A stretch of DNA of 63,508 bases from Bacilli bacterium (GCA_045598145.1 JAZLLM010000001.1:1-63508), one strand, 5' to 3'. Positions 5,720-53,870 are shown, numbered from the stretch's first letter. Program-made: numbers and translations. The notes: generated by a model not told the origin, from the sequence alone.

Positions 5720-6565
5720 TTATATATTATTTATTTCATTTTTAAATAAATGGAATATCTCTCTTTCAACCATTGCATCTTCTAAAGCGTCATGAATTTG
5801 TTCCTGCATATCGATTTTAGCCATTTCTTTATATGTATTGAAAAGACCCATTTCTTGTTTGTAATTATAATAATTTTTAATTACTTGCATCAAGTTCATA
5901 TATCTATTTCTAACATCTAAAGGATGCAAATGATTTAATTTAAAACTTCTTTCAATTGAAAGCCAATCATTTCTACCCCAAGCTATAATTTTAGGATTAT
6001 AATCTTCAATTAACCTTTCAAGTAATTGGTAAAATTCAATATATGGACAAGCATTATCAAAATCTGAGATATCTCTTGATAAGAATTGTAATGTTAAACG
6101 ATTTAAAGAATTAGCTCTCATAGGTTTAACTAATGATGCATCTTCAAATACTATATTACCATCTTTATCTTCCAAAACGATACCATATTGCACAATTTCT
6201 GAAACAGCATATCTATTCATTCCAACTAGAGAAAACTCTAAATCAATAAATAAACGGTTATGTTCTTGATTTACTACATCCCTTACACCATTTTGAATTA
6301 CTTGCAAATCATAATACACTTCCATTTCATTATTTGTTGGATTTACAATCTTAATAAAATGATCAACATCTTGACACTTTATATTACTATAATTTTCAAA
6401 TTCTTCAACTGCCTCAAAATAAACATAAGGTTTTTTAGCTAGATAAGCTTTAAAATCCTTTATGTTTTTATTTGTTAGGTGGAAATATTGAATACTTCCA
6501 TCAACAACAACTGACATCAGTCTTTCTTTTTTGTCTATATAATGCACTTTACCATATACTAACAT
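5720..6565 (-). CDS. DEDDh 3'-5' exonuclease (KapD/ERI-1-like) with an N-terminal extension of about 100 aa
   Basis: Exo motifs LFIDLEFS and HDALEDA. Starts 17 nt downstream of the uvrC stop. Confidence 0.7.
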   Translation of the reverse strand: MLVYGKVHYIDKKERLMSVVVDGSIQYFHLTNKNIKDFKAYLAKKPYVYFEAVEEFENYSNIKCQDVDHFIKIVNPTNNEMEVYYDLQVIQNGVRDVVNQEHNRLFIDLEFSLVGMNRYAVSEIVQYGIVLEDKDGNIVFEDASLVKPMRANSLNRLTLQFLSRDISDFDNACPYIEFYQLLERLIEDYNPKIIAWGRNDWLSIERSFKLNHLHPLDVRNRYMNLMQVIKNYYNYKQEMGLFNTYKEMAKIDMQEQIHDALEDAMVEREIFHLFKNEINNI

Positions 6566-6582
6566 ATTATCACCATTGTTTT

Positions 6583-8322
6583 CTATAAATGATTCATATC
6601 ATTAAATACTTTTATTACTTCATCCTTTTGTTCTTGGTTCAATTTTAATGTATCAATATTCTTTAAAAAATCATCAGAATAAAGTAATTTTAAAATTTGT
6701 GTTTTTTTAACCTTTCCAATTCCTTTTATATCATCTAATTTAGAAGAGAAGATATCTTTATTGTGTGTGCTTCTAAAGAAAGTAATAGCATATCTATGAA
6801 CTTCTTCTTGGATGTTTTCTAATAATCTAAACAAATAACCATTCTTTTCAATATTAATTTCTTTACCTTCATAATATAGACATCTAGTTTTATGGTTATC
6901 ATTTTTTACTAAACCTAATACAGGTATATCTCTTTCAAGAGTAGAAAGTGCGATTTTACAAGCATTCACTTGAATTTCTCCACCATCCATAACAATTAGG
7001 TCTGGATTGTTTTCTAAGTCTTTGTATCTTCTAGTAACAACTTCTTGCATTGTAAGATAGTCATTAGCCCCTACTACTGTTTTAATCTTATATTTACGAT
7101 ACATCTTTTTATTTGGAATACCATCTAAATAAGAAACCATAGCACTAACAGCAGATGCACCTTGTATATTAGAATTATCAAAAGCTTCGATAGTATGAAC
7201 ATCAAAACCTAAAAGTATAGATAATTCCTCCATTGCGCCTTTAGTCATTTTATATTCTAAATCTTTCTTTCTTATTAATGTATCTATTTTGTTTTTTGCA
7301 TTATCAATTACTAAATCAATTAGTTCTTTATTTTTACCTTTTTTAGGTATGTTTACGTGAGTATGCAAGAAATCAGATAACTCAATAACATCACCATCAT
7401 TTATAAATATTTGTTTTGGTATTGGATTGTTTTCTACTAAATAAAAATTATACACAAATTCTTGTAATTTTTCAATACAATTTTCAGGTTTTGCAAATAA
7501 ATAACCATTTCTTTCAAGCATTTTGCTATTTCTCAAATGAAAGACTTGTATACTCATCCATTCATCATTAACATAATAAGCAATTGCGTCAATATCATCA
7601 CTATATCCTTCCATTTTTTGTCTTTCAGATATTGCTAGTAATGAATCTCTTAAATTTCTGTACTCTATTGCTTTCTCAAAATTTAAGTTATTTGATTCTG
7701 TTTCCATCAATACATTTAATATTTTAATTTCATCTTTAACGTTTCCTTTTAATATACTATTAGCTTTTTGTTTTAAATCATCATATATTTTAGAATCGAT
7801 ATCATTTATACATGGTGCTAAACATTGATTAATATGATAATATAAACATTCTTTTTTTGGAATATTCTTGCATTTTCTAAAAGGATACATTCTATTTAGC
7901 ATTTCAACAACATCCTGTGCTGCTTTTGCATTAGGATATGGTCCATATACTTTCCCCTTACTTTTTTTAATATCTCTTGTATATAAGACTCTAGGACTCT
8001 TTTCATTAGTAATAGTGATATAAGGATATTGCTTATCATCCATTAACATGATATTATATTTTGGACGATATTTCTTAATCAAATTTATTTCTAATATAAA
8101 AGCTTCATTTTCATTAGAAGTTATTATATATTCCATATCATCAATTTGACTTACTAAACTTGTTGTTTTAGCGTCATGACTACCAACAAAATAACTGTGT
8201 ACTCTGTTAGACAAGTCTTTTGCTTTTCCAACATAAATAATTTGACCACTTTTATCCTTGTATTGATAACTTCCAGGTTTATGTGGCAATGTATCTAACT
8301 TCAACTTTAATCTTTCATTCAT
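6583..8322 (-). CDS. uvrC: Excinuclease ABC subunit C
   Basis: GIY-YIG N-terminus (GSYQYKDKSGQIIYVGKAKDLSNRV), a UvrBC-interaction region and a C-terminal HhH. 579 aa. Confidence 0.95.
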   Translation of the reverse strand: MNERLKLKLDTLPHKPGSYQYKDKSGQIIYVGKAKDLSNRVHSYFVGSHDAKTTSLVSQIDDMEYIITSNENEAFILEINLIKKYRPKYNIMLMDDKQYPYITITNEKSPRVLYTRDIKKSKGKVYGPYPNAKAAQDVVEMLNRMYPFRKCKNIPKKECLYYHINQCLAPCINDIDSKIYDDLKQKANSILKGNVKDEIKILNVLMETESNNLNFEKAIEYRNLRDSLLAISERQKMEGYSDDIDAIAYYVNDEWMSIQVFHLRNSKMLERNGYLFAKPENCIEKLQEFVYNFYLVENNPIPKQIFINDGDVIELSDFLHTHVNIPKKGKNKELIDLVIDNAKNKIDTLIRKKDLEYKMTKGAMEELSILLGFDVHTIEAFDNSNIQGASAVSAMVSYLDGIPNKKMYRKYKIKTVVGANDYLTMQEVVTRRYKDLENNPDLIVMDGGEIQVNACKIALSTLERDIPVLGLVKNDNHKTRCLYYEGKEINIEKNGYLFRLLENIQEEVHRYAITFFRSTHNKDIFSSKLDDIKGIGKVKKTQILKLLYSDDFLKNIDTLKLNQEQKDEVIKVFNDMNHL

Positions 8323-8380
8323 AATATTATACCTAGAAATTATTGTACCATATATTCCTTAAAATATCAAAATATAAATA

Positions 8381-8416
8381 AAACGGCCTAGTAAACACTT
8401 CGTTTCTAAGCCGTTT
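8381..8416 (-). terminator. Intrinsic terminator after rbfA
   Basis: Minus strand AAACGGCTTAG...CTAGGCCGTTT (one G-U pair) followed by a T-rich tract. Confidence 0.65.
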
Positions 8417-8421
8417 ATTTT

Positions 8422-8775
8422 TTATTTATTCTCTTCTTTCATTCTAATCTCTCTTAAAATGGCTTCAATTCTTTCACCTTGTTCATATGAATTATCATAT
8501 TTGAAGATTAAATCAGGAACTTTTTTAACTTGAATTCTTCTAGCAAGTAAAGTTCTTATAAATCCCTTTGCTTCCATAAAAACTTTAGATGTGTTTTCAA
8601 TTTGGTCTTTATTACCATAAACTGTATAATATACAGTAGCAATAGACAAATCATTAGTAAGATTTACATTTGTAATTGTAACAAATTTGATTCTTTCATC
8701 TTTGACATCACTAAAGATTATTGTGGAAAGTTCTTTTTCAATGATCTTTTCTAATCTTTCTTTTTTATAAGGCAT
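8422..8775 (-). CDS. rbfA: Ribosome-binding factor A
   Basis: Conserved RbfA sequence. Overlaps the infB stop, the canonical operon position. Confidence 0.9.
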
Positions 8776-11218
8776 TTTTAACCTCGTCCATCTTAAATAC
8801 TTCGATTACATCATCTTCTTTAATATCATTATAGTTTTCAATTGTAATACCGCATTCAAATCCTGTAGTAACTTCTTTAACATCATCTTTAAATCTCTTT
8901 AATGAAGAAAGCTTTCCAGTATATACAACAATACTATTTCTAATTAAACGTACATTAGATCCTCTTTCAATAACACCATTAGTTACATAGCAACCAGCAA
9001 TTGTACCAACTTTTGATACTTTATAAGTTTGTCTAACAATAGCTTCACCAATAACTTTTTCTTCATATACAGGGTCTAATAAACCTTTCATAGCAGCTTC
9101 AATATCTTCAAGTAATTTATAAATGATATCGTAATATCTTACTTCAATACCTTTTTCTTTAGCTAAATCTATAATCTTTGATGATGATCTAACATTAAAT
9201 GCAATAATAATTGCTTTAGAAACGATAGCTAAAGAGATATCAGTTTCAGTGATAGCACCAACAGCACTTCTTACTACATTTACCTTTACACCTTCAACAT
9301 CTAATTTAGATAATGAACCTTGTAATGCTTCTAGTGAACCTTGAACATCACCTTTAATTAATAAGTTAAGTTCTTTAGAGTCGTCATTATTGAATAATGA
9401 TGCAAGAGAAACAGTATTTTTAGCTAATTCTTCATTAGCTTTTCTGTTTATTCTTTCTTCACAAATTAATCTTGCAGTCTTTTCATCACTAAATACCATG
9501 AATCTATCACCAGCATTAGGTACATCAACTAAACCACTAACTTCAACAGCTTTAGATGGAGATGCAACTTTAACAATCGACTTAGTTTCATCAGTCATAG
9601 ATCTAATCTTACCCCATGTATTACCTACAACGATAGGATCTCCGACTTTTAATGAACCATTTTTAACAAGTAATGTAGCTACAACACCTTTACCTTTATC
9701 AAGTTTTGCTTCTAATACTGTACCAATAGCAAGTCTATTAGGGTTTGCTTTATATTCATTCATTTCAGCAACTAATGTAACCATTTCAAGTAATTCATCA
9801 ACACCATCGCCTTTTAAAGCTGAAATAGGTACGAAAATTGTCTTTCCACCCCAATCTTCAGCTAATAAATCGTATTGAGCAAGCTCTTGTTTAACTCTAT
9901 CTGGATTAGCAGTAGGCTTATCCATCTTATTTACAGCTACAATAATAGGAACTCCAGCAGCTTTTGAGTGTTCAATAGCTTCTTTTGTTTGTGGCATAAC
10001 ACCATCATCTGCAGCTACTACTAAAATTACAATATCAGTGATGTTAGCACCACGAGCTCTCATTTCTGTGAATGCTGCATGTCCTGGTGTATCAATAAAT
10101 GTAATTAATTTACCATTTTTCTTTACTTGGTAGGCACCAATGTGTTGAGTAATACCTCCAGCTTCGCCTGCAGTTACTCTAGAATGTCTAATTGTATCAA
10201 GTAAAGTAGTTTTTCCGTGGTCAACATGACCCATTATAGTAACAATAGCAGGTCTTTCTACTAAATCTTTAGGATCATCTTCAATATCCATCTCTTCAAA
10301 CTTAGTAATATCGCTATTAATTTCGTTTTTAAGTTCATATCCACAGTCTTCAACTATTAATTCTACTACATCACGCTCTAAAACATCGCTTGCATTAGCG
10401 AAATATCCTAACATAACAAGCTTTTTAACGATCTCACCAATGCCTCTACCTAGTGCATCAGCTACTTTTGCTACTGTCATACCCTCTGTATAATAGATAA
10501 TTTTCTCATCTTGTTTCTTCTCAATAGGTACGTTAGCAGTTCTATCCTTAGTTTGTTTGTTATTTTGCTTCTTTTTAACGTTCTTAATACGGCTATATTG
10601 CTTATTATCTTGGCTAAAATCAGAGTATTTATCCTCATATTGACCTAGTTTTTCTAACTCTTTATTAGTTTCATCTTCTTCATTATAAACATCAGTATGT
10701 TTTTTAGAGTTAAATGATTGATTATTGCTATTTTTAGGGTTAGAATTTTGAGCTTTTTGGTCTTGATTTTGGCTTTGTGGTTTTGAAGCACTTTTTTGCT
10801 CATTTTCTTTAACTTTTTTAGTATCTAAATTGTTATTATTTTTAACTTCTTGTTTTTGATTATTTTTAGTATTATTTTCGTTATATTGCTTTTCTGAGTC
10901 TTTTGGAGCTATTTTTTGCTCTTTAGTTTTCGGAGTACTATTTTTTTCGTCCAAATTGGCCTTAAATTTGCCCTCAGATTGATTTTCGCCCTCAGAACGT
11001 TTATTTATTTCATTGTCTTGTTTCGTCGATTTCTTCGCCTTTATTGGTTTTATGTCTACTTTGAACAATTTTCCGAATTTTTTGACTATAGCGTCCTCTA
11101 CATCAGTTTCTGCATCAGCATTTTCAGTACCAATATTGTCTAACATTTGAACTATACGTTCAGTGGTAACATTTTGACCTTTTTCATTAAGAATTTCGAC
11201 TATTTCTTTTACTTTCAT
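8765..11218 (-). CDS. infB: Translation initiation factor IF-2
   Basis: G-domain motifs [17 protein letters not shown] and NKMD. Long K/N/Q-rich N-terminal region. Confidence 0.97.
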
Positions 11219-13547: not shown

Positions 13548-14303
13548 TTATCTTTTGCTAAACTCATACATAGCTATTGCACCAGCAATACTAACATTTA
13601 GACTTTCTAATTTTGGATTAATATCTATAAATAAGTTTTTATCACATAGTGATTTTACTTCTTCGCTCATCCCATTAGCTTCATTTCCCAAAACAATAGC
13701 ATATCTATTAGGTTTTTCTTCTTTAGATAAAGAAACAGCAGAATCTAAGCTAGTACCAAAAACTTTAATATTAGCTTTCTTGATTTTTAAAATTTCTTCC
13801 TTTAAATCTCCATAGCAAATGTTAATATTAAACAATGCCCCTTGCGTTGCTCTTATTACTTTGCTATTGTATATATCTACACTATTATTACTTAGAAGTA
13901 CTAAATCAATATTAAAGCCTAAAGAAGTTCTTATTAATGTTCCTACATTACCAGGATCTCTTACATCATCTAAAATTAAAATACAATTTGTTTTATTGTA
14001 ATCACATTCATATCTTTTAATCTTGCAAATAGCAATTATGCTTTGAGGATTTTCAGTATCTGATAATTTTTTAATTACTTCAGCACCAGTTAAAACAAGT
14101 TTGCAATTATCATATTGTAATAATTCATCTTTTTTTAATGACAATACTTCAACTACCAACCTTTTTTTATATGCTTCATTAACAAGATGATATCCTTCCA
14201 CAATAAATTCATTATATAAAGTACGATACTTTTTTTCTTTTAATTTAGCTAAGTCTTTAATGTGCTGATTTGAAGTAGATGTAATTTCTAAAATGTTATT
14301 CAT
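13548..14303 (-). CDS. TrmH/SpoU-family RNA 2'-O-methyltransferase
   Basis: SpoU methylase motifs (DPGNVGT..R, LGNEANG, LNVSIAGAI). Confidence 0.85.
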   Translation of the reverse strand: MNNILEITSTSNQHIKDLAKLKEKKYRTLYNEFIVEGYHLVNEAYKKRLVVEVLSLKKDELLQYDNCKLVLTGAEVIKKLSDTENPQSIIAICKIKRYECDYNKTNCILILDDVRDPGNVGTLIRTSLGFNIDLVLLSNNSVDIYNSKVIRATQGALFNINICYGDLKEEILKIKKANIKVFGTSLDSAVSLSKEEKPNRYAIVLGNEANGMSEEVKSLCDKNLFIDINPKLESLNVSIAGAIAMYEFSKR

Positions 14304-14306
14304 ATG

Positions 14307-15011
14307 TTATGCACCAAATATTACTGTTCCAACATAAATCATCATTGCTAGAGTTAAAATTGCTTGTATAATCCAAATTACTAAAAATAATATTTTATTT
14401 ACTTTTTTCTTTACAAAGTTAATATATAATTCCCATGATAATAACATTAATAATAAAGGAGCAGAATATACTAACAATCCAACTATTGGATAATATAACC
14501 AAGTATTTGCATTAAACTTATCAAAGAAATTAGAAAATACATCAAGTAACCAATTTGCGAAAGAAAGCCATAGTGAATAACTGACTCCAGGAAGACATAA
14601 TATTATCATTACTACACCATAAAATATAATCCATGGTTGTATTTGATCTATTGCAGATTTAGGCTCTGCTTCCTTTTTTTCTTTTAATAAAGCTTTTTTC
14701 TTTTTGTTTAATTCTTTAATTTGTTTTTTTACACTTTCGTATTCATCATAGTATTTATCTACCATTTCTTCGCTAGTTAAGTGTATTTCTATTTCATCTT
14801 GCTTTATTTCAAGTTTTTGAAGCTCAAATTCAATCTGTGCTAGTTCGTTTTTATCTTCTTGTTTATTTATATCAATTTCAGCTTCCTCTTGTTCTAGGCC
14901 AAATTTCTCGCTTGCTAAATCATTAGTATTTTCAATTTCCTCTAGATGTGAGTCTTTATTGATATCTTCTTTTTTATTTTGCTCGTTTTCATTTAAATCT
15001 TTTTCGTTCAT
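14307..15011 (-). CDS. Membrane protein of unknown function (acidic coiled-coil N-terminus plus about 4 TM helices)
   Basis: E/K-rich heptad-like N-terminal half and a hydrophobic C-terminal half. No recognisable family. Confidence 0.6.
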   Translation of the reverse strand: MNEKDLNENEQNKKEDINKDSHLEEIENTNDLASEKFGLEQEEAEIDINKQEDKNELAQIEFELQKLEIKQDEIEIHLTSEEMVDKYYDEYESVKKQIKELNKKKKALLKEKKEAEPKSAIDQIQPWIIFYGVVMIILCLPGVSYSLWLSFANWLLDVFSNFFDKFNANTWLYYPIVGLLVYSAPLLLMLLSWELYINFVKKKVNKILFLVIWIIQAILTLAMMIYVGTVIFGA

Positions 15012-40545: not shown

Positions 40546-40564
40546 AAGTCAAATTCTAATACTT
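40537..40564. terminator. Bidirectional AT-rich terminator (crp-like / ttuC-like)
   Basis: AAGTATTAGAA-gtcaaa-TTCTAATACTT overlapping both stop codons. T-runs on both sides. Confidence 0.6.
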
Positions 40565-41629
40565 TTCTTTTAATATTCTTACAATTTCGTCACCAACATC
40601 GCTTGTGCTTGCCTTACCGCCTAAATCTGGTGTTAAAACATTTCCGTCACTTAATAATTCTTCAAATGATAATATCAATCTATCATACCATTTTTGATAA
40701 CCTAAGTGTTTTAGCATTCCTCCAGCAGCCCATATTTGTGCAATAGGATTCGCAATGTTAAGACCTGCAATATCTGGTGCAGAGCCGTGAATTGATTCAA
40801 ACATTGAAGGATATTTTTTCTCAGGATTAATATTATCACCAGCAGCAAGTCCCATTCCACCAGCAATAGCGGCACCCAAATCCGTTAATATATCACCAAA
40901 TAAATTACTTGTAACAACCACATCAAATCTTTCTGGATGTAATACAAACATCATACTGGCTGCATCAACCATCAATTGATTATGAATAATATCTGGATAT
41001 TCTTTACTAACTTCATCAAATATTTGATTCCAAAAAACCATTGAATAATTTAAAGCATTACCTTTAGTTACTGATGTAACGGTTTTTCTTCCTTCTTTTC
41101 TAGCAAGTTCAAAAGCATAGCGAATTACTCTTTCGCAACCTTTTCTTGTAAACTTACCAGTTTGGTATACAAACTCATCTTTAGTTCCTTTATTATGCCA
41201 TTCGCCTAGGCCTGCATATTCACCTTCACTGTTTTCTCTAATAACAACGAAATCGATATCTTTTGTGGTCTTATTTTTTAAAGGGCCATCAACGCCTTTT
41301 AATAATTTTACAGGTCTCAAGTTTATATATTGATCAAAACCAGTTCTTATTTTTAATAATAATTCTCTTAAAGAGATATGGTCAGGTACATTAGGATATC
41401 CAACTGCTCCTAAATAAATAGCATCATAATTCTTTAAAGTTCCTAAGCCATCATCATCCATCATTTTACCATGTGTTAAATAATATTCACATCCCCAATC
41501 AAAATAATCGAAATCAAATTCGAAGCTTTTATCGATATCAGAAATGGCTTTTAATACTTTAACTCCTTCATTAACGACTTCTTTTCCTATACCATCTCCT
41601 GGTATAACAGCTATTCTAAATTTTTCCAT
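40556..41629 (-). CDS. Tartrate/D-malate dehydrogenase-type enzyme (isopropylmalate/isocitrate dehydrogenase superfamily)
   Basis: IPGDGIGKEV and NLFGDILTDLGAAIAGGMGLA motifs. About 357 aa. Start at ATG 41629, which follows an AGGTG SD. Confidence 0.8.
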   Translation of the reverse strand: MEKFRIAVIPGDGIGKEVVNEGVKVLKAISDIDKSFEFDFDYFDWGCEYYLTHGKMMDDDGLGTLKNYDAIYLGAVGYPNVPDHISLRELLLKIRTGFDQYINLRPVKLLKGVDGPLKNKTTKDIDFVVIRENSEGEYAGLGEWHNKGTKDEFVYQTGKFTRKGCERVIRYAFELARKEGRKTVTSVTKGNALNYSMVFWNQIFDEVSKEYPDIIHNQLMVDAASMMFVLHPERFDVVVTSNLFGDILTDLGAAIAGGMGLAAGDNINPEKKYPSMFESIHGSAPDIAGLNIANPIAQIWAAGGMLKHLGYQKWYDRLILSFEELLSDGNVLTPDLGGKASTSDVGDEIVRILKEKY

Positions 41630-41638
41630 ACTTAACAC

Positions 41639-42802
41639 CTATTTTCTTATTACATTTGTTTTAATAGCTGCATCATATACATATTTTGCAACTCTATTAT
41701 GTGCTTCCTTATTCCAAGCATAAGGTAATATATAATCTACACTTAATTCTTCATCACTAACAGAATCCATTATTGCTTTTGTGGCTGCTATCATCATTTC
41801 CTTATTAATAACTTTAGCTTTTGCATCCAATGCTCCTCTAAAAATACCAGGGAATACCAATACATTATTAATTTGGTTAGGGTTTTTACTGCTACCACTA
41901 CCTACAATATATCCTACTTCTTTGGCATCTTCATAACTAATTTCAGGGTTTGGATTAGCACAAGGGAATAATATAGGTTTTGCATTCATTGTTTTTACCA
42001 TATCTTTAGTTAGTACATTAGCACATGATACACCAATAAATACATCACTATTTATAATAGCATCTTTTAAAAGGCCTTTGATTCCTTCTTTGTTTATAAG
42101 TTTAGCTAATTCTCTTTGGGCATTATTAAAATCATCATTATCATTAATGATGCCATTTTTATCAACAACCTTTATATGCTTTGCTCCTAAATCTAATAAA
42201 TATTTACAAATAGAAATGCCTGCAGCTCCAGCTCCATTTATTACTATTTTAATTTCTTCTATTTTTTTATTAGCAAGTTTTAAAGCATTTAGTAAAGCAG
42301 CTGCCATTACAATAGCTGTACCATGCTGATCATCATGAAATACTGGAATTGATAATTCATTAATTAATCTTTTTTCGATATCAAAACATCTAGGTGCACT
42401 AATATCTTCTAGGTTTATTCCGCCAAAGCTACCTTCTAAATATTTAATGGTTTTAATAATTTCTTCACTGTCATTAGTATTAATTGATAAAGGAAAAGCA
42501 TTAACATTGCCATATTCTTTAAATAATGCACATTTACCTTCCATAACTGGCATTCCTGCAATAGGTCCAATATTACCTAAACCTAATATAGCTGATCCGT
42601 CAGTAATAACAGCTACATAATTATTTCTACCTGTAAGGTTAAATGATTCTTTTTCGTCATCCTTTATAGCTAAACATGCATCAGCTACACCAGGAGTGTA
42701 AGCTAAAGATAGTTCATCTCTATTAGATACACTAACCTTAGATGTAATCTCTATTTTACCATTCCATTCTCTATGTTTTTTAATAGCTTCTGTTTCTTTC
42801 AT
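41639..42802 (-). CDS. NAD(P)-dependent malic enzyme (short form)
   Basis: FHDDQHGTAIV and GAGAAG motifs. 387 aa. Confidence 0.9.
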   Translation of the reverse strand: MKETEAIKKHREWNGKIEITSKVSVSNRDELSLAYTPGVADACLAIKDDEKESFNLTGRNNYVAVITDGSAILGLGNIGPIAGMPVMEGKCALFKEYGNVNAFPLSINTNDSEEIIKTIKYLEGSFGGINLEDISAPRCFDIEKRLINELSIPVFHDDQHGTAIVMAAALLNALKLANKKIEEIKIVINGAGAAGISICKYLLDLGAKHIKVVDKNGIINDNDDFNNAQRELAKLINKEGIKGLLKDAIINSDVFIGVSCANVLTKDMVKTMNAKPILFPCANPNPEISYEDAKEVGYIVGSGSSKNPNQINNVLVFPGIFRGALDAKAKVINKEMMIAATKAIMDSVSDEELSVDYILPYAWNKEAHNRVAKYVYDAAIKTNVIRK

Positions 42803-42836: not shown

Positions 42837-43376
42837 TTAGAAAGGCATTTTAAGTAAATATTTAATTAAAAATCTAAATCCGTATTCTCCATTTAAAGCA
42901 TCTTCATATGCTTGTCTAATTTGTTCCATTAATTCTGGATCTGAGAAAATTATAATTAATTCAATAAAGAAAATAATATTAATAAAAATTGCTATTGCGC
43001 TTAATACAATACCTACTATAGCTTTTCCCATATTTTCTTTATCTTTTTTACAAGCAAGAGCACCAAATACAATTGACACAATACCAAATGGTAATCCAGC
43101 AATAAATAAACAGCAAACAATTGTTGTTGCTATTGCAATAATTCCAGTAATTAAAGAAATCTTTGCATAATTATTTTTAGGTCCATTATTAGCATAAATA
43201 TTATTATTTTGATAATTATATTGAGGTTGTCCATATTGAGCATTATATTGGTTGTTATATTGATTGTTATATTCTTGAGTTTGCTCAGGTTTTTTCTCTT
43301 CTTCTAATTGTGAACCACATACTGCGCAATACTTAGCTTGAGGTGGGTTTTCTGTTCCACATATTCTACACTTCAT
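42837..43376 (-). CDS. Zinc-ribbon / Q-N-Y-rich / DUF4190-like membrane protein
   Basis: N-terminal CRICG...CAVCG, then a QYNNQYN low-complexity linker, then two or three TM helices. Confidence 0.7.
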   Translation of the reverse strand: MKCRICGTENPPQAKYCAVCGSQLEEEKKPEQTQEYNNQYNNQYNAQYGQPQYNYQNNNIYANNGPKNNYAKISLITGIIAIATTIVCCLFIAGLPFGIVSIVFGALACKKDKENMGKAIVGIVLSAIAIFINIIFFIELIIIFSDPELMEQIRQAYEDALNGEYGFRFLIKYLLKMPF

Positions 43377-43472: not shown

Positions 43473-44657
43473 TTACTTATAATCATTAATTAGGTCTTCA
43501 AATGCTTTTAAGCTTCTTAAAATCATATCAGTATCAACACAATAAGAGATTCTTATATAGCCAGTAACACCAAATGAATCACTTGGAACTAATAATAATT
43601 CGTGTTTTTTTGCCCTCTCAGAAAACTCATTTGCATCTTCACCTAGTGCTTTTATAAATAAATAAAATGCGCCATTTGGATATGTTACTTGATATCCCAT
43701 TCTAGTAAGTTCTTTATATAGAATATCACGATTCTTTTCATATATAGTAATATCTGAAGTTTTACCTAAACAATAAGGTATCATATATTGGAATAGAGCT
43801 GGAGCACATACATAACCCAAACTTCTTCCAGCACCGCATATTGATTTAAATATTTTTACTTTTTCTATACACTTGTTTGATACCAAAATATAGCCAATTC
43901 TTTCTCCAGGAAGTGATAATGATTTACTAAATGAATAACATACTATAGTATTATCATAGAATTTAGTAACAAAAGGTGTTTGTACTCCATCATAAACTAG
44001 TTCTCTATATGGTTCATCAGCAATTATAAAAATGTTTGAATTAAATTCCTTTTGCTTTTTATATAATAAATTAGCTAATTCTTTTAATTCATCTTCACTA
44101 ATTAATACGCCAGTTGGATTATTTGGTGAATTAATTATAATTGCTTTGGTTTTAGAACTTATTGCTTTTTCTAAAGATTCAAAATCAATTTTAAAGGTTT
44201 TATCTTTACATTTAACTACTACTAATTTACCATTAGCTTTTTCAGTGAAAACCCTGTATTCAGGAAAAAAAGGAGCAAGAGCAATTACTTCATCACCCTC
44301 ATTTATTAATGCGTTTAAAGAAATAGTTAAAGAAGCTGCAGCACCACATGTTAAATATATTAAGCTGGCGCTTTCGTTTACACCATATGTAGAATTAACA
44401 TAATTAGCTATACTTTCTCTAACATCTTTATCTCCTATAGCTGTAGTATATGCATGTAATTTTGTTGGTTCTGTTTTTGTTATGATATCAATTAATGCCT
44501 CATTTACTACGCTAGGACTAGGCACACTTGGATTACCTAAACTGAAATCAAAAACTTTGTCTTCCCCAATTTGTTCTTTTCTTTTTCTTCCGTATTCAAA
44601 TAATTCTCTTATAGCTGAACCTTTATTTCCAAGGCCAAACATTTTTTCATTATACAT
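43473..44657 (-). CDS. PLP-dependent class I aminotransferase (aspartate/aromatic type)
   Basis: PLP lysine motif YSFSKSLSLPGERIGY. 394 aa. Confidence 0.88.
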   Translation of the reverse strand: MYNEKMFGLGNKGSAIRELFEYGRKRKEQIGEDKVFDFSLGNPSVPSPSVVNEALIDIITKTEPTKLHAYTTAIGDKDVRESIANYVNSTYGVNESASLIYLTCGAAASLTISLNALINEGDEVIALAPFFPEYRVFTEKANGKLVVVKCKDKTFKIDFESLEKAISSKTKAIIINSPNNPTGVLISEDELKELANLLYKKQKEFNSNIFIIADEPYRELVYDGVQTPFVTKFYDNTIVCYSFSKSLSLPGERIGYILVSNKCIEKVKIFKSICGAGRSLGYVCAPALFQYMIPYCLGKTSDITIYEKNRDILYKELTRMGYQVTYPNGAFYLFIKALGEDANEFSERAKKHELLLVPSDSFGVTGYIRISYCVDTDMILRSLKAFEDLINDYK

Positions 44658-44671
44658 ACTATTTCTCCGTT

Positions 44672-45508
44672 TTATAAATTCAATATTCTATATGCATTTT
44701 TATATAATATTTTATCTTTATCGTCATTTGATAAATTTAATTTATCAAATTCATATTTCATATCTTTAGTATTCATCCAAGGATTGTCACTAGCAAATAA
44801 TATTTTGTCACTACCATGTTTATTTATTATATCTATTAATAAATTATCTTTTATTAAATCGCTATATGTACCATCAAGATTAGAAACTTGACCTATAGTC
44901 ATAGCTAAATCAAGATAACAATCGAACTTGCCAGCAAGCAATTCGTTTACCTTGTCCCATTCATATAAAGCTCCTAAATGAGCAAGAACAATTTTACCTT
45001 TATTTATCTTTTTAAGTAAACTAATAACATTGTTTATACTTGAGTGCATATCATTAGGGAATCCTGGATCTAAACCTGCATGAACTACAACAATCATATC
45101 ATATTTAAAAGCCTCATTAATAATATTAATATATCTGATATCATCAATATTACAATTTTGATATACTGGATGCAATTTAATTCCTTTAATATTAGCTTCA
45201 CTTAGTCTTTTTATTTCTTCTTTATAATTATCGTAATCTGGATGCATTCCGCCAAAAGCAATAATATTATTTTCTTTCGTTAAAGTATTAATCCTAATAC
45301 TTTCATTGTTAATTGATATAGTATTTTTAGGATTAGTAATTACAGGTAATGTAATTGAATAATCGATTCCATTTCTTTGCATATCTTTTAATAAACCTAA
45401 ATAAGTGCCATCAAAAGATGCCTTCATAGATCCTTTAATCTCTAATTCAGATATGGCTTTATTTGCTATACGTTCAGGAAATATATGTGTGTGAAAATCG
45501 ATTACCAT
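44672..45508 (-). CDS. Amidohydro_2-type TIM-barrel metal-dependent hydrolase/decarboxylase
   Basis: N-terminal IDFHTHIFP (HxH), then HAG..., AHLG and SDNPW. Start at ATG 45508, which follows an AAGGTGG SD. Confidence 0.75.
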   Translation of the reverse strand: MVIDFHTHIFPERIANKAISELEIKGSMKASFDGTYLGLLKDMQRNGIDYSITLPVITNPKNTISINNESIRINTLTKENNIIAFGGMHPDYDNYKEEIKRLSEANIKGIKLHPVYQNCNIDDIRYINIINEAFKYDMIVVVHAGLDPGFPNDMHSSINNVISLLKKINKGKIVLAHLGALYEWDKVNELLAGKFDCYLDLAMTIGQVSNLDGTYSDLIKDNLLIDIINKHGSDKILFASDNPWMNTKDMKYEFDKLNLSNDDKDKILYKNAYRILNL

Positions 45509-45520
45509 ATTAACCACCTT

Positions 45521-47158
45521 CTATTTAGTTGTTTGTGCTTCTACTAAATTATTAACGCAATATTTTTCTCTAAGTTTAGGTTTTTCAATTTTTCCAGTAG
45601 GATTTCTTGGAACTTTATCAAAGATAATCTTACGTGGTCTTTTATATCTTGGTATTTTTAAACAAAATTCATTAACTTCATCTTCAGTTAAAGTCATGTC
45701 TTCTTTAACCTCAATAATTGCAGCGGCTATTTCACCTAATCTATTATCAGGTAAACCAATAACAGCTACGTCTTTAATCTTATCATTACTCCTTAAGAAA
45801 TCTTCAATTTGAACTGGATATAAGTTTTCTCCTCCCGTGATAATAACATCTTTCTTTCTATCTACTAAATAAATGAAGCCATCGATATCGTATTTTGCCA
45901 TATCACCAGTATATAACCATTCCCCATCTAAAATTTCTTTTGTAGCTTTTTCGTTATTATAATAACACTTCATAACGCCAGGTCCACTTACCGCTAATTC
46001 ACCAACTTTTTCTGGTTCCTTAATTTCATTATGTTTTTCATCCACAATTTTTGTTTTCCATAAATAGCCGGCTTTACCAATTGAACCTACTTTATTAATG
46101 TTTTCGATACCTAAATGCACACATCCTGGACCAATTGATTCACTTAGCCCATAATTTGTATCATATTTATGATGAGGGAATATTGATAACCATCTCTTAA
46201 TTAAACTAGGTGGTACTGGTTGAGCGCCAACATGCATTAATCTCCATTGGTCTAATTCAAAATCATTAAGCTCTAATTCACCTCTATCAATACAGTCTAA
46301 TATATCTTGTGCCCATGGTACTAGCAACCAAACAATGGTGCACTTTTCAGCTGATATAGTTTCAAAAATCCATTGAGGCTTAATACCACGTAATAATACA
46401 GCTTTAGAACCAGACGCTAAAGAACCAAACCAATGCATTTTAGCTCCTGTATGATATAGTGGAGGCATACATAAAAATACATCATCATGATTTTGTTTAT
46501 GATGGTTTTGTTCAGTTAAGCAAGAATTATATAGTGCTTTGTGCGCATGTAATATAGCTTTAGGAAAGCCTGTTGTACCACTAGAGAAATAAATAGCCGC
46601 ATTATCTTCTTGTGTTAAAACAATATTTGGTTTCACATTAGAAAAGAAATCTAGTTGTTTATCATAACTATCTGAAAATGAAGGTTCATCATCTCCAACA
46701 TAAAACATATTTTTGATATCTTTTAATGTGTCAAATATAGATTCTATTCTGCCAATAAATTCATTACCAAAGATTAATGTGTTACATTCTGCTAATTCTA
46801 AACAATATTTAATTTCATCAGCTGTATAACGATAATTTAGCGGTACAGCTAAAGCACCTGTTTTTAAAACACCAAAATATATAGGAAGCCATTCTATACA
46901 ATTCATTAATAAAATAGCAACTTTGTCATTTTTCTTAATGCCTTTGCTTAATAGCATATTTGCGAAACGATTAGCTTTATCATCAAATTCATTCCATGTC
47001 ATTTGGCGTCTATATCCACTACCTACTGCTGGTTCAATTAAATTAAATTCGCGCCATGTCTTAAATCTTTCTGGTTTGCTAGTTGGATTGATTTCAACTA
47101 AACATACTTCATCTCCAAATTCTCTTGCATTTCTTTCTAAAAAATCAGTAATAATCAT
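45521..47158 (-). CDS. Class I adenylate-forming acyl/aryl-CoA ligase (AMP-binding)
   Basis: YFSSGTTGFPKA (A3), YGLSE, TGD and the C-terminal PRNPTGKI lysine motif. Confidence 0.88.
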   Translation of the reverse strand: MIITDFLERNAREFGDEVCLVEINPTSKPERFKTWREFNLIEPAVGSGYRRQMTWNEFDDKANRFANMLLSKGIKKNDKVAILLMNCIEWLPIYFGVLKTGALAVPLNYRYTADEIKYCLELAECNTLIFGNEFIGRIESIFDTLKDIKNMFYVGDDEPSFSDSYDKQLDFFSNVKPNIVLTQEDNAAIYFSSGTTGFPKAILHAHKALYNSCLTEQNHHKQNHDDVFLCMPPLYHTGAKMHWFGSLASGSKAVLLRGIKPQWIFETISAEKCTIVWLLVPWAQDILDCIDRGELELNDFELDQWRLMHVGAQPVPPSLIKRWLSIFPHHKYDTNYGLSESIGPGCVHLGIENINKVGSIGKAGYLWKTKIVDEKHNEIKEPEKVGELAVSGPGVMKCYYNNEKATKEILDGEWLYTGDMAKYDIDGFIYLVDRKKDVIITGGENLYPVQIEDFLRSNDKIKDVAVIGLPDNRLGEIAAAIIEVKEDMTLTEDEVNEFCLKIPRYKRPRKIIFDKVPRNPTGKIEKPKLREKYCVNNLVEAQTTK

Positions 47159-47171
47159 AATTCTCTCCTAT

Positions 47172-47440
47172 AAAAAACGTCCTTATAAACAATGTATGTT
47201 TATATAAGGACGAATAATAATCGTGGTACCACCTTACTTCGTTAGTACTTTACAATACTAACCTCATCAAGCACAATCATGCTTTATCGCTTTAACGGGC
47301 GAACACGTCACAGCCTACTAAATTCCTTGTTTGGTGTGCAGCATAAGAAATGTATTCAAATAAATATTGTATTATCTTGCACCGAACGATAACTCTCTAT
47401 AAATCAATAATTTATTTTACTCTTTTTCTATCATAGCTTT
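47172..47440 (-). promoter_or_regulatory. T-box riboswitch leader with Tyr (UAC) specifier, including terminator/antiterminator
   Basis: Stem I has AAGAGUA opposite GAA-UAC-A (47357-47351), an AGAGAG bulge and a GGUGCAA distal loop. Also present: a CCGUUA F-box, AAGGUGGUACCACGA (47235-47221), and the terminator CGUCCUUAUA(U)AAAC/GUUUAUAAGGACG plus U6. Confidence 0.88.
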
Positions 47441-47484: not shown

Positions 47485-47514
47485 AAAAAACTGCTTTCAA
47501 ATTTTTGAAAACAG
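47485..47514 (-). terminator. Intrinsic terminator after the ACT-domain gene
   Basis: CTGTTTTCAA-aaat-TTGAAAGCAG (one G-U pair) plus TTTTTT. Confidence 0.8.
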
Positions 47515-47528
47515 TTTTGCATTAATCA

Positions 47529-52622: not shown

Positions 52623-53870
52623 TTAATTTATAGGATTATAAATTATACCCATAAATAATATAACATCATTTGAATCAGTAATATAATAAATAAAAGGTTT
52701 ATTTAAATTCATATATAAACATGGACTAGCTTCTTCTGCTTTGGCTCCACCAAATGTTATAGCTGCTGCTTTGGCTCCTTCTTCATCTAATTCGATACCG
52801 CAAATTTGATCAATATATTCAAAATATAATCTTTCATCGCTAATTTTGCTTAAATTACATTCATTTGCATCAAATAATGATTCCAATCCTAAATCAATTA
52901 AATTATCTCTTAATGTATATTTTAATTGATATTTAAATTTAGGCAGTGAATAATTAATTGATGTTTTTTCAAAATTAGTTTTACCAGCTAATAATAAATA
53001 AAATTGATCTTCTTTAAATATATCTTCTACTGTGTATCCTTCGTTTGGTAAAACATAGGTAATTTTATTGTTATTATTAAAATAATCGCAAGCTAAAGTA
53101 AAATGTTCTCCTAAAAAATATTCACCATAAATTTCATGATGCATGAAATCTGCGCTTACATCTCCATTATAACTATAGAAAGTAGAAGCATATGTATTAT
53201 TTTTTAAATACTTGCTTTGCCATTTGTTATTAAAATATATACTATTTACTAAAAATAAAACAACATCGGTTAAATCAAAATCGTCTTCTTTTACATTTAG
53301 AAAATCGAATGTATTATTATTCATCCATTTAAGAATATTTTTCTTTGTTTCAGAATCAAATGCTGCACGGAATATATCAGCTTTATAATCATTACATAAA
53401 GTATTTACATATTCATCTTTAAATGACATATTTTTATGTAGCCATATAGAATTAGCAATTCTAAGTTTTCCTCCATCATTATCATATTCATTATTCAAAA
53501 TGGTGTTTTTGATACCATTTCGCAAAGTATTTACATCACAATATAAAACATTGTTTAGCTCTGATAGAGTTACTCCATCTGCACCTTCAGCAATCATTGA
53601 AAGAGCAATAAGTAAACTAATTGGTGAGTATATTTGATTATTTTTCTTGTTGTTAAATATATTTAAAGATGTCTTATATGCAAAAGTATTAAATAGATTT
53701 ACATAATTTGCTTCAACATTATATTCTTCTTTTGCGCTTGCCTTATGCTCTACCTTATTTACTATTTCAAAATTCTTAGTTTCTTTAATTTTGTTGCTTG
53801 AACAAGAACATAAAGAAAAACTAAAAAATATGGTAAGTATAATTATTAAAAGTATTCTATTTATTTTCAT
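52623..53870 (-). CDS. Serpin-family protease inhibitor, lipoprotein-anchored
   Basis: Lipobox SFSLCSC. Hinge/RCL DEEGAKAAAITFGG..., then NKPFIYYI and the C-terminal LFMGIIYNP serpin signature. Confidence 0.88.
   Translation of the reverse strand: MKINRILLIIILTIFFSFSLCSCSSNKIKETKNFEIVNKVEHKASAKEEYNVEANYVNLFNTFAYKTSLNIFNNKKNNQIYSPISLLIALSMIAEGADGVTLSELNNVLYCDVNTLRNGIKNTILNNEYDNDGGKLRIANSIWLHKNMSFKDEYVNTLCNDYKADIFRAAFDSETKKNILKWMNNNTFDFLNVKEDDFDLTDVVLFLVNSIYFNNKWQSKYLKNNTYASTFYSYNGDVSADFMHHEIYGEYFLGEHFTLACDYFNNNNKITYVLPNEGYTVEDIFKEDQFYLLLAGKTNFEKTSINYSLPKFKYQLKYTLRDNLIDLGLESLFDANECNLSKISDERLYFEYIDQICGIELDEEGAKAAAITFGGAKAEEASPCLYMNLNKPFIYYITDSNDVILFMGIIYNPIN

Follow-up and report, generated by a model that had tools for sequence, protein, structure and literature searches.

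A tyrosine-specific T-box ahead of a CoA ligase operon beside iorAB in an uncultured member of the Bacilli: a candidate tyrosine arm of aryl-acid salvage

Introduction

Why should an RNA element that senses uncharged tRNA-Tyr stand in front of a coenzyme A (CoA) ligase gene? The question is raised by a 63,508-nucleotide (nt) stretch of DNA from Bacilli bacterium (GCA_045598145.1, JAZLLM010000001.1:1-63508), referred to below, at its full length, as the window. Positions 43473-47158 carry genes for a CoA ligase, an Amidohydro_2-type metalloenzyme and an aminotransferase. The original prediction, made from the sequence alone, had placed a tyrosine-specific T-box ahead of these genes and proposed that, together with the adjoining indolepyruvate:ferredoxin oxidoreductase (IOR) genes iorAB, they form a tyrosine-supply pathway. 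T-boxes switch genes on upon uncharged cognate tRNA, and IOR interconverts arylpyruvates and aryl-acetyl-CoAs. Aryl-acid salvage has been a known physiology since studies of the rumen in the 1960s, and 4-hydroxyphenylacetate is abundant in both gut and rumen.

On balance, we read the operon as the tyrosine-specific, starvation-induced arm of IOR-dependent aryl-acid salvage, leading from 4-hydroxyphenylacetate through its CoA ester and 4-hydroxyphenylpyruvate to tyrosine. The broader statement, that the operon serves tyrosine supply via the IOR module in some form, can be made with good confidence. The evidence is computational throughout and consists of sequence, profile, RNA-fold, predicted-structure and neighbourhood comparison. 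Besides the 63.5-kb window, 176 loci in total were examined, with flanks of up to 10 kb. The amidohydrolase-anchored set comprised 80 genome loci (35-43% identical) from Lachnospiraceae, Oscillospiraceae, Eubacterium, Synergistaceae and others; the ligase-anchored set comprised 80 metagenome loci (ligase 58-77% identical), 64 of which had at least 1.2 kb downstream. T-boxes in relatives were sought by a motif scan and Rfam in the surroundings of genes closely homologous to the amidohydrolase or the ligase.

T-box leader and operon structure

The regulatory elements ahead of the operon are as follows.

47443-47203, minus strand: transcription-attenuating T-box leader RNA (RF00230 at 121.4 bits, gathering score 93; E = 2.3e-26; aligned from model position 1 to 219 of 219)
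47354-47352, minus strand: specifier codon UAC (tyrosine) in the specifier loop GAA-UAC-A, where UAC falls on the codon columns of the covariance model
47206..47235, minus strand: antiterminator AAGG-UGGUACC-ACGA...UCGU-CCUU, from the covariance-model alignment and the sequence
47212-47172, minus strand: intrinsic terminator hairpin followed by U6; the hairpin is present in the minimum-free-energy and centroid structures
47483-47455, minus strand: promoter-like site TTGACA-17 nt-TAATAT with TG, a consensus match only, 12 nt ahead of the leader
47485..47518, minus strand: terminator-like 14-bp hairpin with a U-tract after the ACT gene (-14.4 kcal/mol, z = -4.05)

The T-box predicted ahead of the three genes was confirmed, and it lies just outside 43473-47158. 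It is the only above-threshold T-box that Rfam finds in the window, and its match spans the whole model, with Stem I, Stem III and the antiterminator all covered. A purine, A, stands directly 3' of the UAC specifier. The UGGU bulge of the antiterminator would pair with the A73-CCA acceptor end of the tRNA. The terminator hairpin is built from the arms CGUCCUUAUA...UAUAAGGACG, followed by U6; its 5' arm overlaps the 3' arm of the antiterminator, with UCGUCCUU common to both hairpins. As judged from these pairings, the two structures would be mutually exclusive, the terminator preceding the ligase start codon, and the leader can be classed as a standard transcription-attenuation T-box for tRNA-Tyr.

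The genes under its control follow on the same strand.

47158-45521, minus strand: class I adenylate-forming acyl/aryl-CoA ligase, 545 amino acids (aa), with Pfam AMP-binding and AMP-binding_C domains
45508-44672, minus strand: Amidohydro_2 TIM-barrel metalloenzyme, 278 aa from ATG (PF04909, 69.5 bits against a cutoff of 26.4)
44657-43473, minus strand: class I pyridoxal-phosphate aminotransferase of the PRK06836 family, 394 aa (NF005305, 540.5 bits against 376)

All three are as originally named, and the gaps of 12 and 14 nt, each with its Shine-Dalgarno sequence, stood as well: the ligase ends in TAG and is followed by 12 nt with AAGGTGG and the ATG of the amidohydrolase, which ends in TAA ahead of 14 nt with GGAG and the ATG of the aminotransferase. 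For the amidohydrolase, a GTG at 45517 is also open as an alternative start.

Immediately upstream, again as had been claimed, lies an iorAB-paaK-ACT operon, in which both IOR subunits pass their models.

51610-49865, minus strand: iorA, indolepyruvate:ferredoxin oxidoreductase alpha subunit (TIGR03336, 709.7 bits against 650.9)
49854-49285, minus strand: iorB, indolepyruvate:ferredoxin oxidoreductase beta subunit (NF005325, 287.2 bits against 230)
49273-47969, minus strand: PaaK-family arylacetate-CoA ligase with AMP-binding_C_2 (TIGR02155, 522.5 bits against an equivalog cutoff of 646.3)
47960-47529, minus strand: ACT-domain-pair protein (PF19571, 109 bits), conserved directly after paaK

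The order of the whole region, all on the minus strand, is therefore iorA, iorB, PaaK-family ligase, ACT pair, T-box, ligase, Amidohydro_2 and aminotransferase. The upstream string is closed by its own hairpin and U-tract, which only 1 of 200 shuffles equalled in stability, and the T-box operon is therefore a separate transcription unit. The promoter-like site gains credibility from its position between this upstream terminator and the T-box leader.

The window has a GC content of 29.8%. No entry of the protein collection exceeds 81% identity to its SecY, and entries named 'MAG: Bacilli bacterium' (MAG, metagenome-assembled genome) are at 63-67%. By these markers, the host is a low-GC, uncultured member of the Bacilli.

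Conservation of the tyrosine specifier

The original prediction would have been countered by orthologous operons devoid of amino-acid-linked regulation. The opposite was found: 11 distinct ligase-linked leaders, that of the window included, were recovered from loci of 28-57% GC, and all 11 carry the tyrosine specifier UAC. It stands in equal register, as GAA-(N)-UAC-purine, 85-90 nt into the leader, and none of the 11 has another codon, including those for phenylalanine or tryptophan. In the relatives, the T-box lies directly upstream of the ligase (L084/85, L086/87, L088-90/L171-172, L092, L093, L094, L095, L096, L097/98/99/169 and L175/176), and most of these T-boxes reach the Rfam gathering score; that of L096 was read by eye, that of L175 was read from the sequence, and L098 and L099 are truncated where their contigs stop. 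Identity from leader to leader is mostly 44-81%, with one pair at 92%. Orthologues of the ligase are 70-80% identical to that of the window, and 71-80% where they bear a T-box, the closest (80%) coming from a Bacilli MAG, and further close ligases are found in Acholeplasmatales MAGs.

Behind the T-box, the ligase is the constant, tyrosine-specific cargo, whereas the other genes vary. The triad of ligase, amidohydrolase and aminotransferase, whose joint occurrence with tyrosine T-boxes and iorAB had been posed as a check, does recur in the window, L086 and L088, but only the ligase is invariant. It is followed by a sodium:solute symporter (SSF) and the amidohydrolase in L084, L093 and L095, and by the symporter in L094 and L175; it stands alone in L097 and probably in L096, whose downstream region yielded no identifiable pathway gene. 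This varying cargo points to uptake and activation as the committed steps specific for tyrosine. Two close relatives, L081 (5910-8000) and L091 (6554-7001), have iorA-iorB-paaK-ACT-ligase(-amidohydrolase-aminotransferase) in one string, with 20-28 nt from ACT to ligase and no T-box; the switch was therefore gained or lost within the group.

No T-box specific for phenylalanine or tryptophan was found on iorA or paaK in the 176 loci, nor any cluster-linked T-box in the 80 Clostridia-type genome loci, as searched by motif scan and by Rfam on selected loci. One good Clostridia-type match, in L051, was rejected, as it controls tyrS and not the cluster.

Gene neighbourhood of the ligase and the amidohydrolase

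The proposed link to IorAB was backed independently by the position of the ligase in metagenomes. Among the ligase-anchored metagenome loci, ior genes occur in 38 of 80, and in 27 of the 64 that could be judged the ligase is followed by a same-strand iorA no more than 800 nt away, often at 9-60 nt. Such pairs extend to marine/sediment-type contigs, where identity to the IorA of the window drops to about 38%. Since iorAB is present about once per genome, this linkage is far beyond chance. The ligase family is large (at least 8000 scored candidates), with members 59-80% identical across Bacilli and Clostridia.

In the sediment-type contigs L144-L164 (ligase about 59%, IorA about 38% identical), the order ligase-iorA-iorB is kept without paaK, although the IOR-like oxidoreductase has diverged much further. 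A cobalamin riboswitch (67.5 bits) at 14292-14492 on the minus strand of L101, a locus with ligase and iorAB, is probably unrelated.

The neighbourhoods of the amidohydrolase contain the same genes. In its 80 loci, iorA, iorB and paaK each occur in 34-35, the symporter (PF00474, found by neighbour clustering) in 35, ACT in 24, the ligase (60-70% identical) in 17 and the aminotransferase in 9, while 25 show none of these; neighbour clustering brought up the symporter as recurrent and no further enzyme. Full arrangements are typified by ligase-iorA-iorB-paaK-ACT-amidohydrolase-SSF (L048) and SSF-paaK-iorA-iorB-paaK-ACT-amidohydrolase-aminotransferase (L066). Overall, these genes make up a conserved module, comprising as many as eight gene families, in which the ligase, IOR and the aminotransferase are encoded together and kept as a neighbourhood. 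No gene accompanies iorAB-paaK-ACT and the symporter more faithfully than that of the amidohydrolase. The supposed role of this enzyme as a partner in the tyrosine branch stood in so far as it recurs, but it goes with the IOR/PaaK/transporter module in general and is not specific for tyrosine.

In Synergistaceae and some Clostridia (L014, L017, L019, L031, L035 and L069, at about 6300-8900 in each), a stand-alone unit of two genes, symporter and amidohydrolase, lies between unrelated flanks; the two therefore function as a unit of their own. No symporter homologue was found in the window. In L060, L066, L034 and L063, two PaaK paralogues, about 50% and 56% identical to the PaaK of the window, flank iorAB; two such paralogues in Clostridia clusters fit separate ligases for different aryl acids.

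A second, divergent Amidohydro_2-like gene of 369 aa with a weak Pfam match occurs in L088 (4506-5615, minus strand) and L171 (7387-8496, minus strand), the closest relatives (ligase 80% identical). Its transcription diverges from that of the T-box-ligase operon, and the window lacks it.

Proposed pathway

A published survey of T-boxes found the specifier in agreement with what the gene under its control does, wherever this is known (PMC2494555). As the ligase, with or without the symporter, is controlled by a tyrosine T-box, and specifiers agree with cargo function in this survey, the ligase should raise the supply of tyrosine. Uncharged tRNA-Tyr would pair with the UAC specifier and the UGGU bulge, stabilise the antiterminator and permit readthrough into the three genes. 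The ligase would then turn a scavenged tyrosine skeleton, which we infer to be most likely 4-hydroxyphenylacetate, into its CoA thioester at the expense of ATP. IorAB, working in the presumed biosynthetic direction with reduced ferredoxin and CO2, would carboxylate the thioester reductively to 4-hydroxyphenylpyruvate, from which the PRK06836-type aminotransferase is predicted to make L-tyrosine. In other lineages, the T-box-controlled sodium:solute symporter would import the acid. The PaaK-family ligase would serve a phenylacetate branch and, where two paaK copies are present, perhaps indoleacetate as well, with the ACT-pair protein exerting amino-acid feedback control on the phenylacetate branch. 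The Amidohydro_2 enzyme would be a conserved accessory of the whole module. By family knowledge, AMP-forming ligases favour the assimilatory direction and an ACT pair points to amino-acid feedback; the ACT-pair protein is probably the amino-acid-binding regulator of the module.

The ligase belongs to the ANL class I family, whose motifs FSSGTTGFPKA and NPTGKIEKPK, with the C-terminal catalytic lysine, are present; its Pfam domains scored 248.6 bits (AMP-binding) and 41.3 bits (AMP-binding_C). Its predicted function as a 4-hydroxyphenylacetate-CoA ligase rests on its regulation and neighbourhood. PaaK, the phenylacetate-CoA ligase, would catalyse a reaction of this type with a substrate that is closely related, and a PaaK-family gene adjoins the operon. 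However, the T-box ligase falls into the branch of FadD and 4-coumarate-CoA ligases (AMP-binding plus AMP-binding_C), while the PaaK branch has AMP-binding_C_2. The PaaK enzymes characterised so far have a narrow specificity for phenylacetate, and this would account for a second ligase being needed. As to the PaaK-family protein of the window, its domain architecture is PaaK-like, and it is best described as a family member of uncertain substrate.

The aminotransferase finds its best structure match in PDB 3ELE (E = 1e-146). It misses the tyrosine aminotransferase models TIGR01264 (126 bits against 474) and TIGR01265 (143 against 292).

In the amidohydrolase, the residues D7, H9, H11, H92, K114, H116, H146, D150, H180, D203, D244 and W247 are invariant, and in its AlphaFold2 model (mean confidence score, pLDDT, 95.4) they lie at the ends of nearly every barrel strand. 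Because invariant residues cap nearly all strands of the modelled barrel, the protein is very probably a metal-dependent catalyst. Its nearest folds in Foldseek were ACMSD, gamma-resorcylate decarboxylase, LigW and IDCase (template-modelling score 0.64-0.74, probability 1.00), with which it shares the TIM barrel and the HxH...H...D metal-ligand pattern. It differs from them in sequence (13-18% identity), in length (278 aa against about 330 aa) and in the additional invariant residues H92, K114, H116, D150 and D203; moreover, the proposed pathway offers no obvious ortho-hydroxy-carboxylate substrate. Its sequence matches in the PDB were weak and mostly confined to the C-terminal third, and no NCBIfam model matched. 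Our best guess, held at low confidence, is that it acts on the imported acid or on the arylpyruvate. A thioesterase is unlikely, since it would be futile under a promoter common to the ligase.

Several observations weigh against the proposed pathway. The ligase reaches no NCBIfam cutoff, its top model being PRK06187 (396 bits against 476), and its nearest solved structures are the fatty-acyl ligases FadD13 (E = 4e-70) and FadD5. The three-step scheme holds no step for the conserved amidohydrolase. In the window, iorAB-paaK-ACT is on a separate transcript outside the control of the T-box, and about half of the ligase orthologues have no iorAB within 7 kb. Most ligase orthologues, especially outside the Bacilli-like group, have no T-box, and neither has any of the 17 ligases in the 80 amidohydrolase-anchored Clostridia-type genome loci. 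Finally, IOR is usually described as an oxidative enzyme that produces aryl acids.

Alternative explanations

The alternative that survives best, while still unlikely, takes the ligase for a broad arylacetate (or short/medium acyl) CoA ligase feeding IOR enzymes, with tyrosine as a proxy for aromatic shortage. Many ligase-iorAB pairs come without paaK, as in the sediment-type contigs mentioned above, so that a single ligase may serve all aryl acids, and this ligase is 59-80% identical across very different hosts. However, such breadth is at odds with a specifier that is UAC in 11 of 11 leaders and a phenylalanine or tryptophan codon in none. Moreover, the T-box lineages keep a separate PaaK-family ligase outside the T-box, which argues for a division of labour.

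Similarly improbable is the activation of another acid with a tyrosine skeleton, such as 3-(4-hydroxyphenyl)propionate, 4-hydroxyphenyllactate or 4-coumarate, with the Amidohydro_2 enzyme acting as a hydratase or similar on the way to 4-hydroxyphenylpyruvate. The tyrosine T-box is compatible with any tyrosine precursor, 4-coumarate-CoA ligases are among the relatives of the ligase too (E = 6e-49), and the amidohydrolase, idle in the arylacetate scheme, belongs to a family that includes hydratases and lactonases. Yet this route needs genes for an acyl-CoA dehydrogenase, a dehydratase and a dehydrogenase, none of which recurs in the 176 loci, where only IorAB recurs as a redox partner, and its acyl-CoA substrates are arylacetyl-CoAs.

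A catabolic direction is far less probable. Here, tyrosine would be transaminated and decarboxylated oxidatively by IOR, the ligase would run in reverse to conserve ATP, and the symporter would export the acid. IOR was indeed discovered as an enzyme of peptide fermentation, according to reference 49 as cited in PMC4641369, and gut studies commonly take iorAB as aryl-acid producing, an example being PMC12629828. Nevertheless, a breakdown of tyrosine induced by tyrosine starvation would be self-defeating and is without precedent in the T-box survey (PMC2494555), and AMP-forming ligases are normally irreversible in cells.

Least probable of all is an ordinary fatty-acid CoA ligase whose T-box has no metabolic tie to tyrosine: the generic or 'long-chain' database names and the FadD13 and FadD5 structures would agree with it, but it fits neither the tyrosine T-box kept in 11 divergent leaders, nor the tight linkage to iorAB, the aminotransferase and the symporter, nor the scores, which fall below the cutoff of every fatty-acid ligase model, the long-chain ones included, and by more than for PRK06187 in all the others.

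Comparison with known systems

The family of the T-box RNA, the IOR subunits and the logic of the aryl-acid pathway are all ordinary. Methanococcus maripaludis converts aryl acids to aromatic amino acids in an IOR-dependent manner (Porat et al. 2004, as cited in PMC4162585), and rumen organisms make phenylalanine from phenylacetate (PMC7356843). The proposed pathway follows the same logic, from aryl acid through aryl-acetyl-CoA and arylpyruvate to amino acid. It differs from these in its bacterial hosts, which are uncultured Bacilli and Clostridia, in the FadD-like, not PaaK-type, ligase proposed for the tyrosine branch, and in the control of this branch by a tRNA-Tyr-sensing RNA; the Amidohydro_2 enzyme and the symporter are additional here and lie outside the described pathway.

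The known tyrosine T-box regulon comprises tyrS, the tyrosine biosynthesis operon of the Bacillus cereus group together with phenylalanine hydroxylase, and an NhaC-family transporter (PMC2494555). The RNA family and the UAC logic are the same, and in both cases the cargo would raise the supply of charged tRNA-Tyr; here, however, it is a CoA ligase, with or without the symporter, the amidohydrolase and the aminotransferase. CoA is nowhere mentioned in that survey, and the main text of PMC3766115 mentions neither a CoA ligase nor indolepyruvate. Literature searches on T-boxes with a CoA ligase or indolepyruvate, and on 4-hydroxyphenylacetyl-CoA, returned nothing relevant. Relative to the searched literature, a CoA ligase as T-box cargo, a FadD-like ligase of the tyrosine branch and the Amidohydro_2 and symporter partners appear new, with some room left for an earlier mention.

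If correct, the proposed pathway gives a specific candidate function to a very large conserved family labelled only 'acyl-CoA ligase', and supplies candidate genes for the tyrosine branch of a long-known salvage physiology. The tyrosine T-box serves as an indicator of direction, as it argues that the IOR-linked genes build aromatic amino acids and do not degrade them; this bears on the inference, from gut metagenomes, that the host-active metabolites phenylacetate, 4-hydroxyphenylacetate and indoleacetate are produced. The Amidohydro_2 enzyme and the symporter are flagged as two conserved partners.

A more far-reaching and tentative possibility, which we regard as rather doubtful, is that the widespread cluster of anaerobic Firmicutes is a dedicated assimilatory machine turning environmental aryl acids into phenylalanine, tryptophan and tyrosine. 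Its parts would be iorAB, one or more PaaK paralogues, the FadD-like ligase, the ACT-pair protein, the Amidohydro_2 enzyme, the symporter and the aminotransferase. In that case, the Amidohydro_2 enzyme would catalyse a required and so far undescribed step on the imported acid or the arylpyruvate, and iorAB clusters taken as producers of indoleacetate or phenylacetate would often be consumers.

Neighbouring genes

Upstream of the IOR operon, at 59950-56370 on the minus strand of the window, are genes for an [FeFe] hydrogenase large subunit with N-terminal Fe-S domains and a NuoF-like flavoprotein subunit (58145-56370; 59950-58157). The pair looks like a HydABC-type, possibly electron-bifurcating hydrogenase and would be a potential link between H2, NADH and ferredoxin. 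It fits a ferredoxin-based anaerobic metabolism and proves nothing about the aryl-acid pathway.

Two genes upstream of iorA stands a gene for a bacterial serpin (52623-53870, minus strand; PF00079, 205 bits), and a serpin also stands immediately after the homologous T-box operon in L171 (12838-14301, minus strand), from a related Bacilli MAG. Directly downstream of the operon, at 42837-43376 on the minus strand, a small protein is encoded that has an N-terminal zinc ribbon, a low-complexity linker rich in Q, N and Y, and a DUF4190-like membrane domain. It is followed, on the same strand as the operon (40556-42802, minus strand), by malic enzyme and a gene of the isocitrate/isopropylmalate dehydrogenase family.

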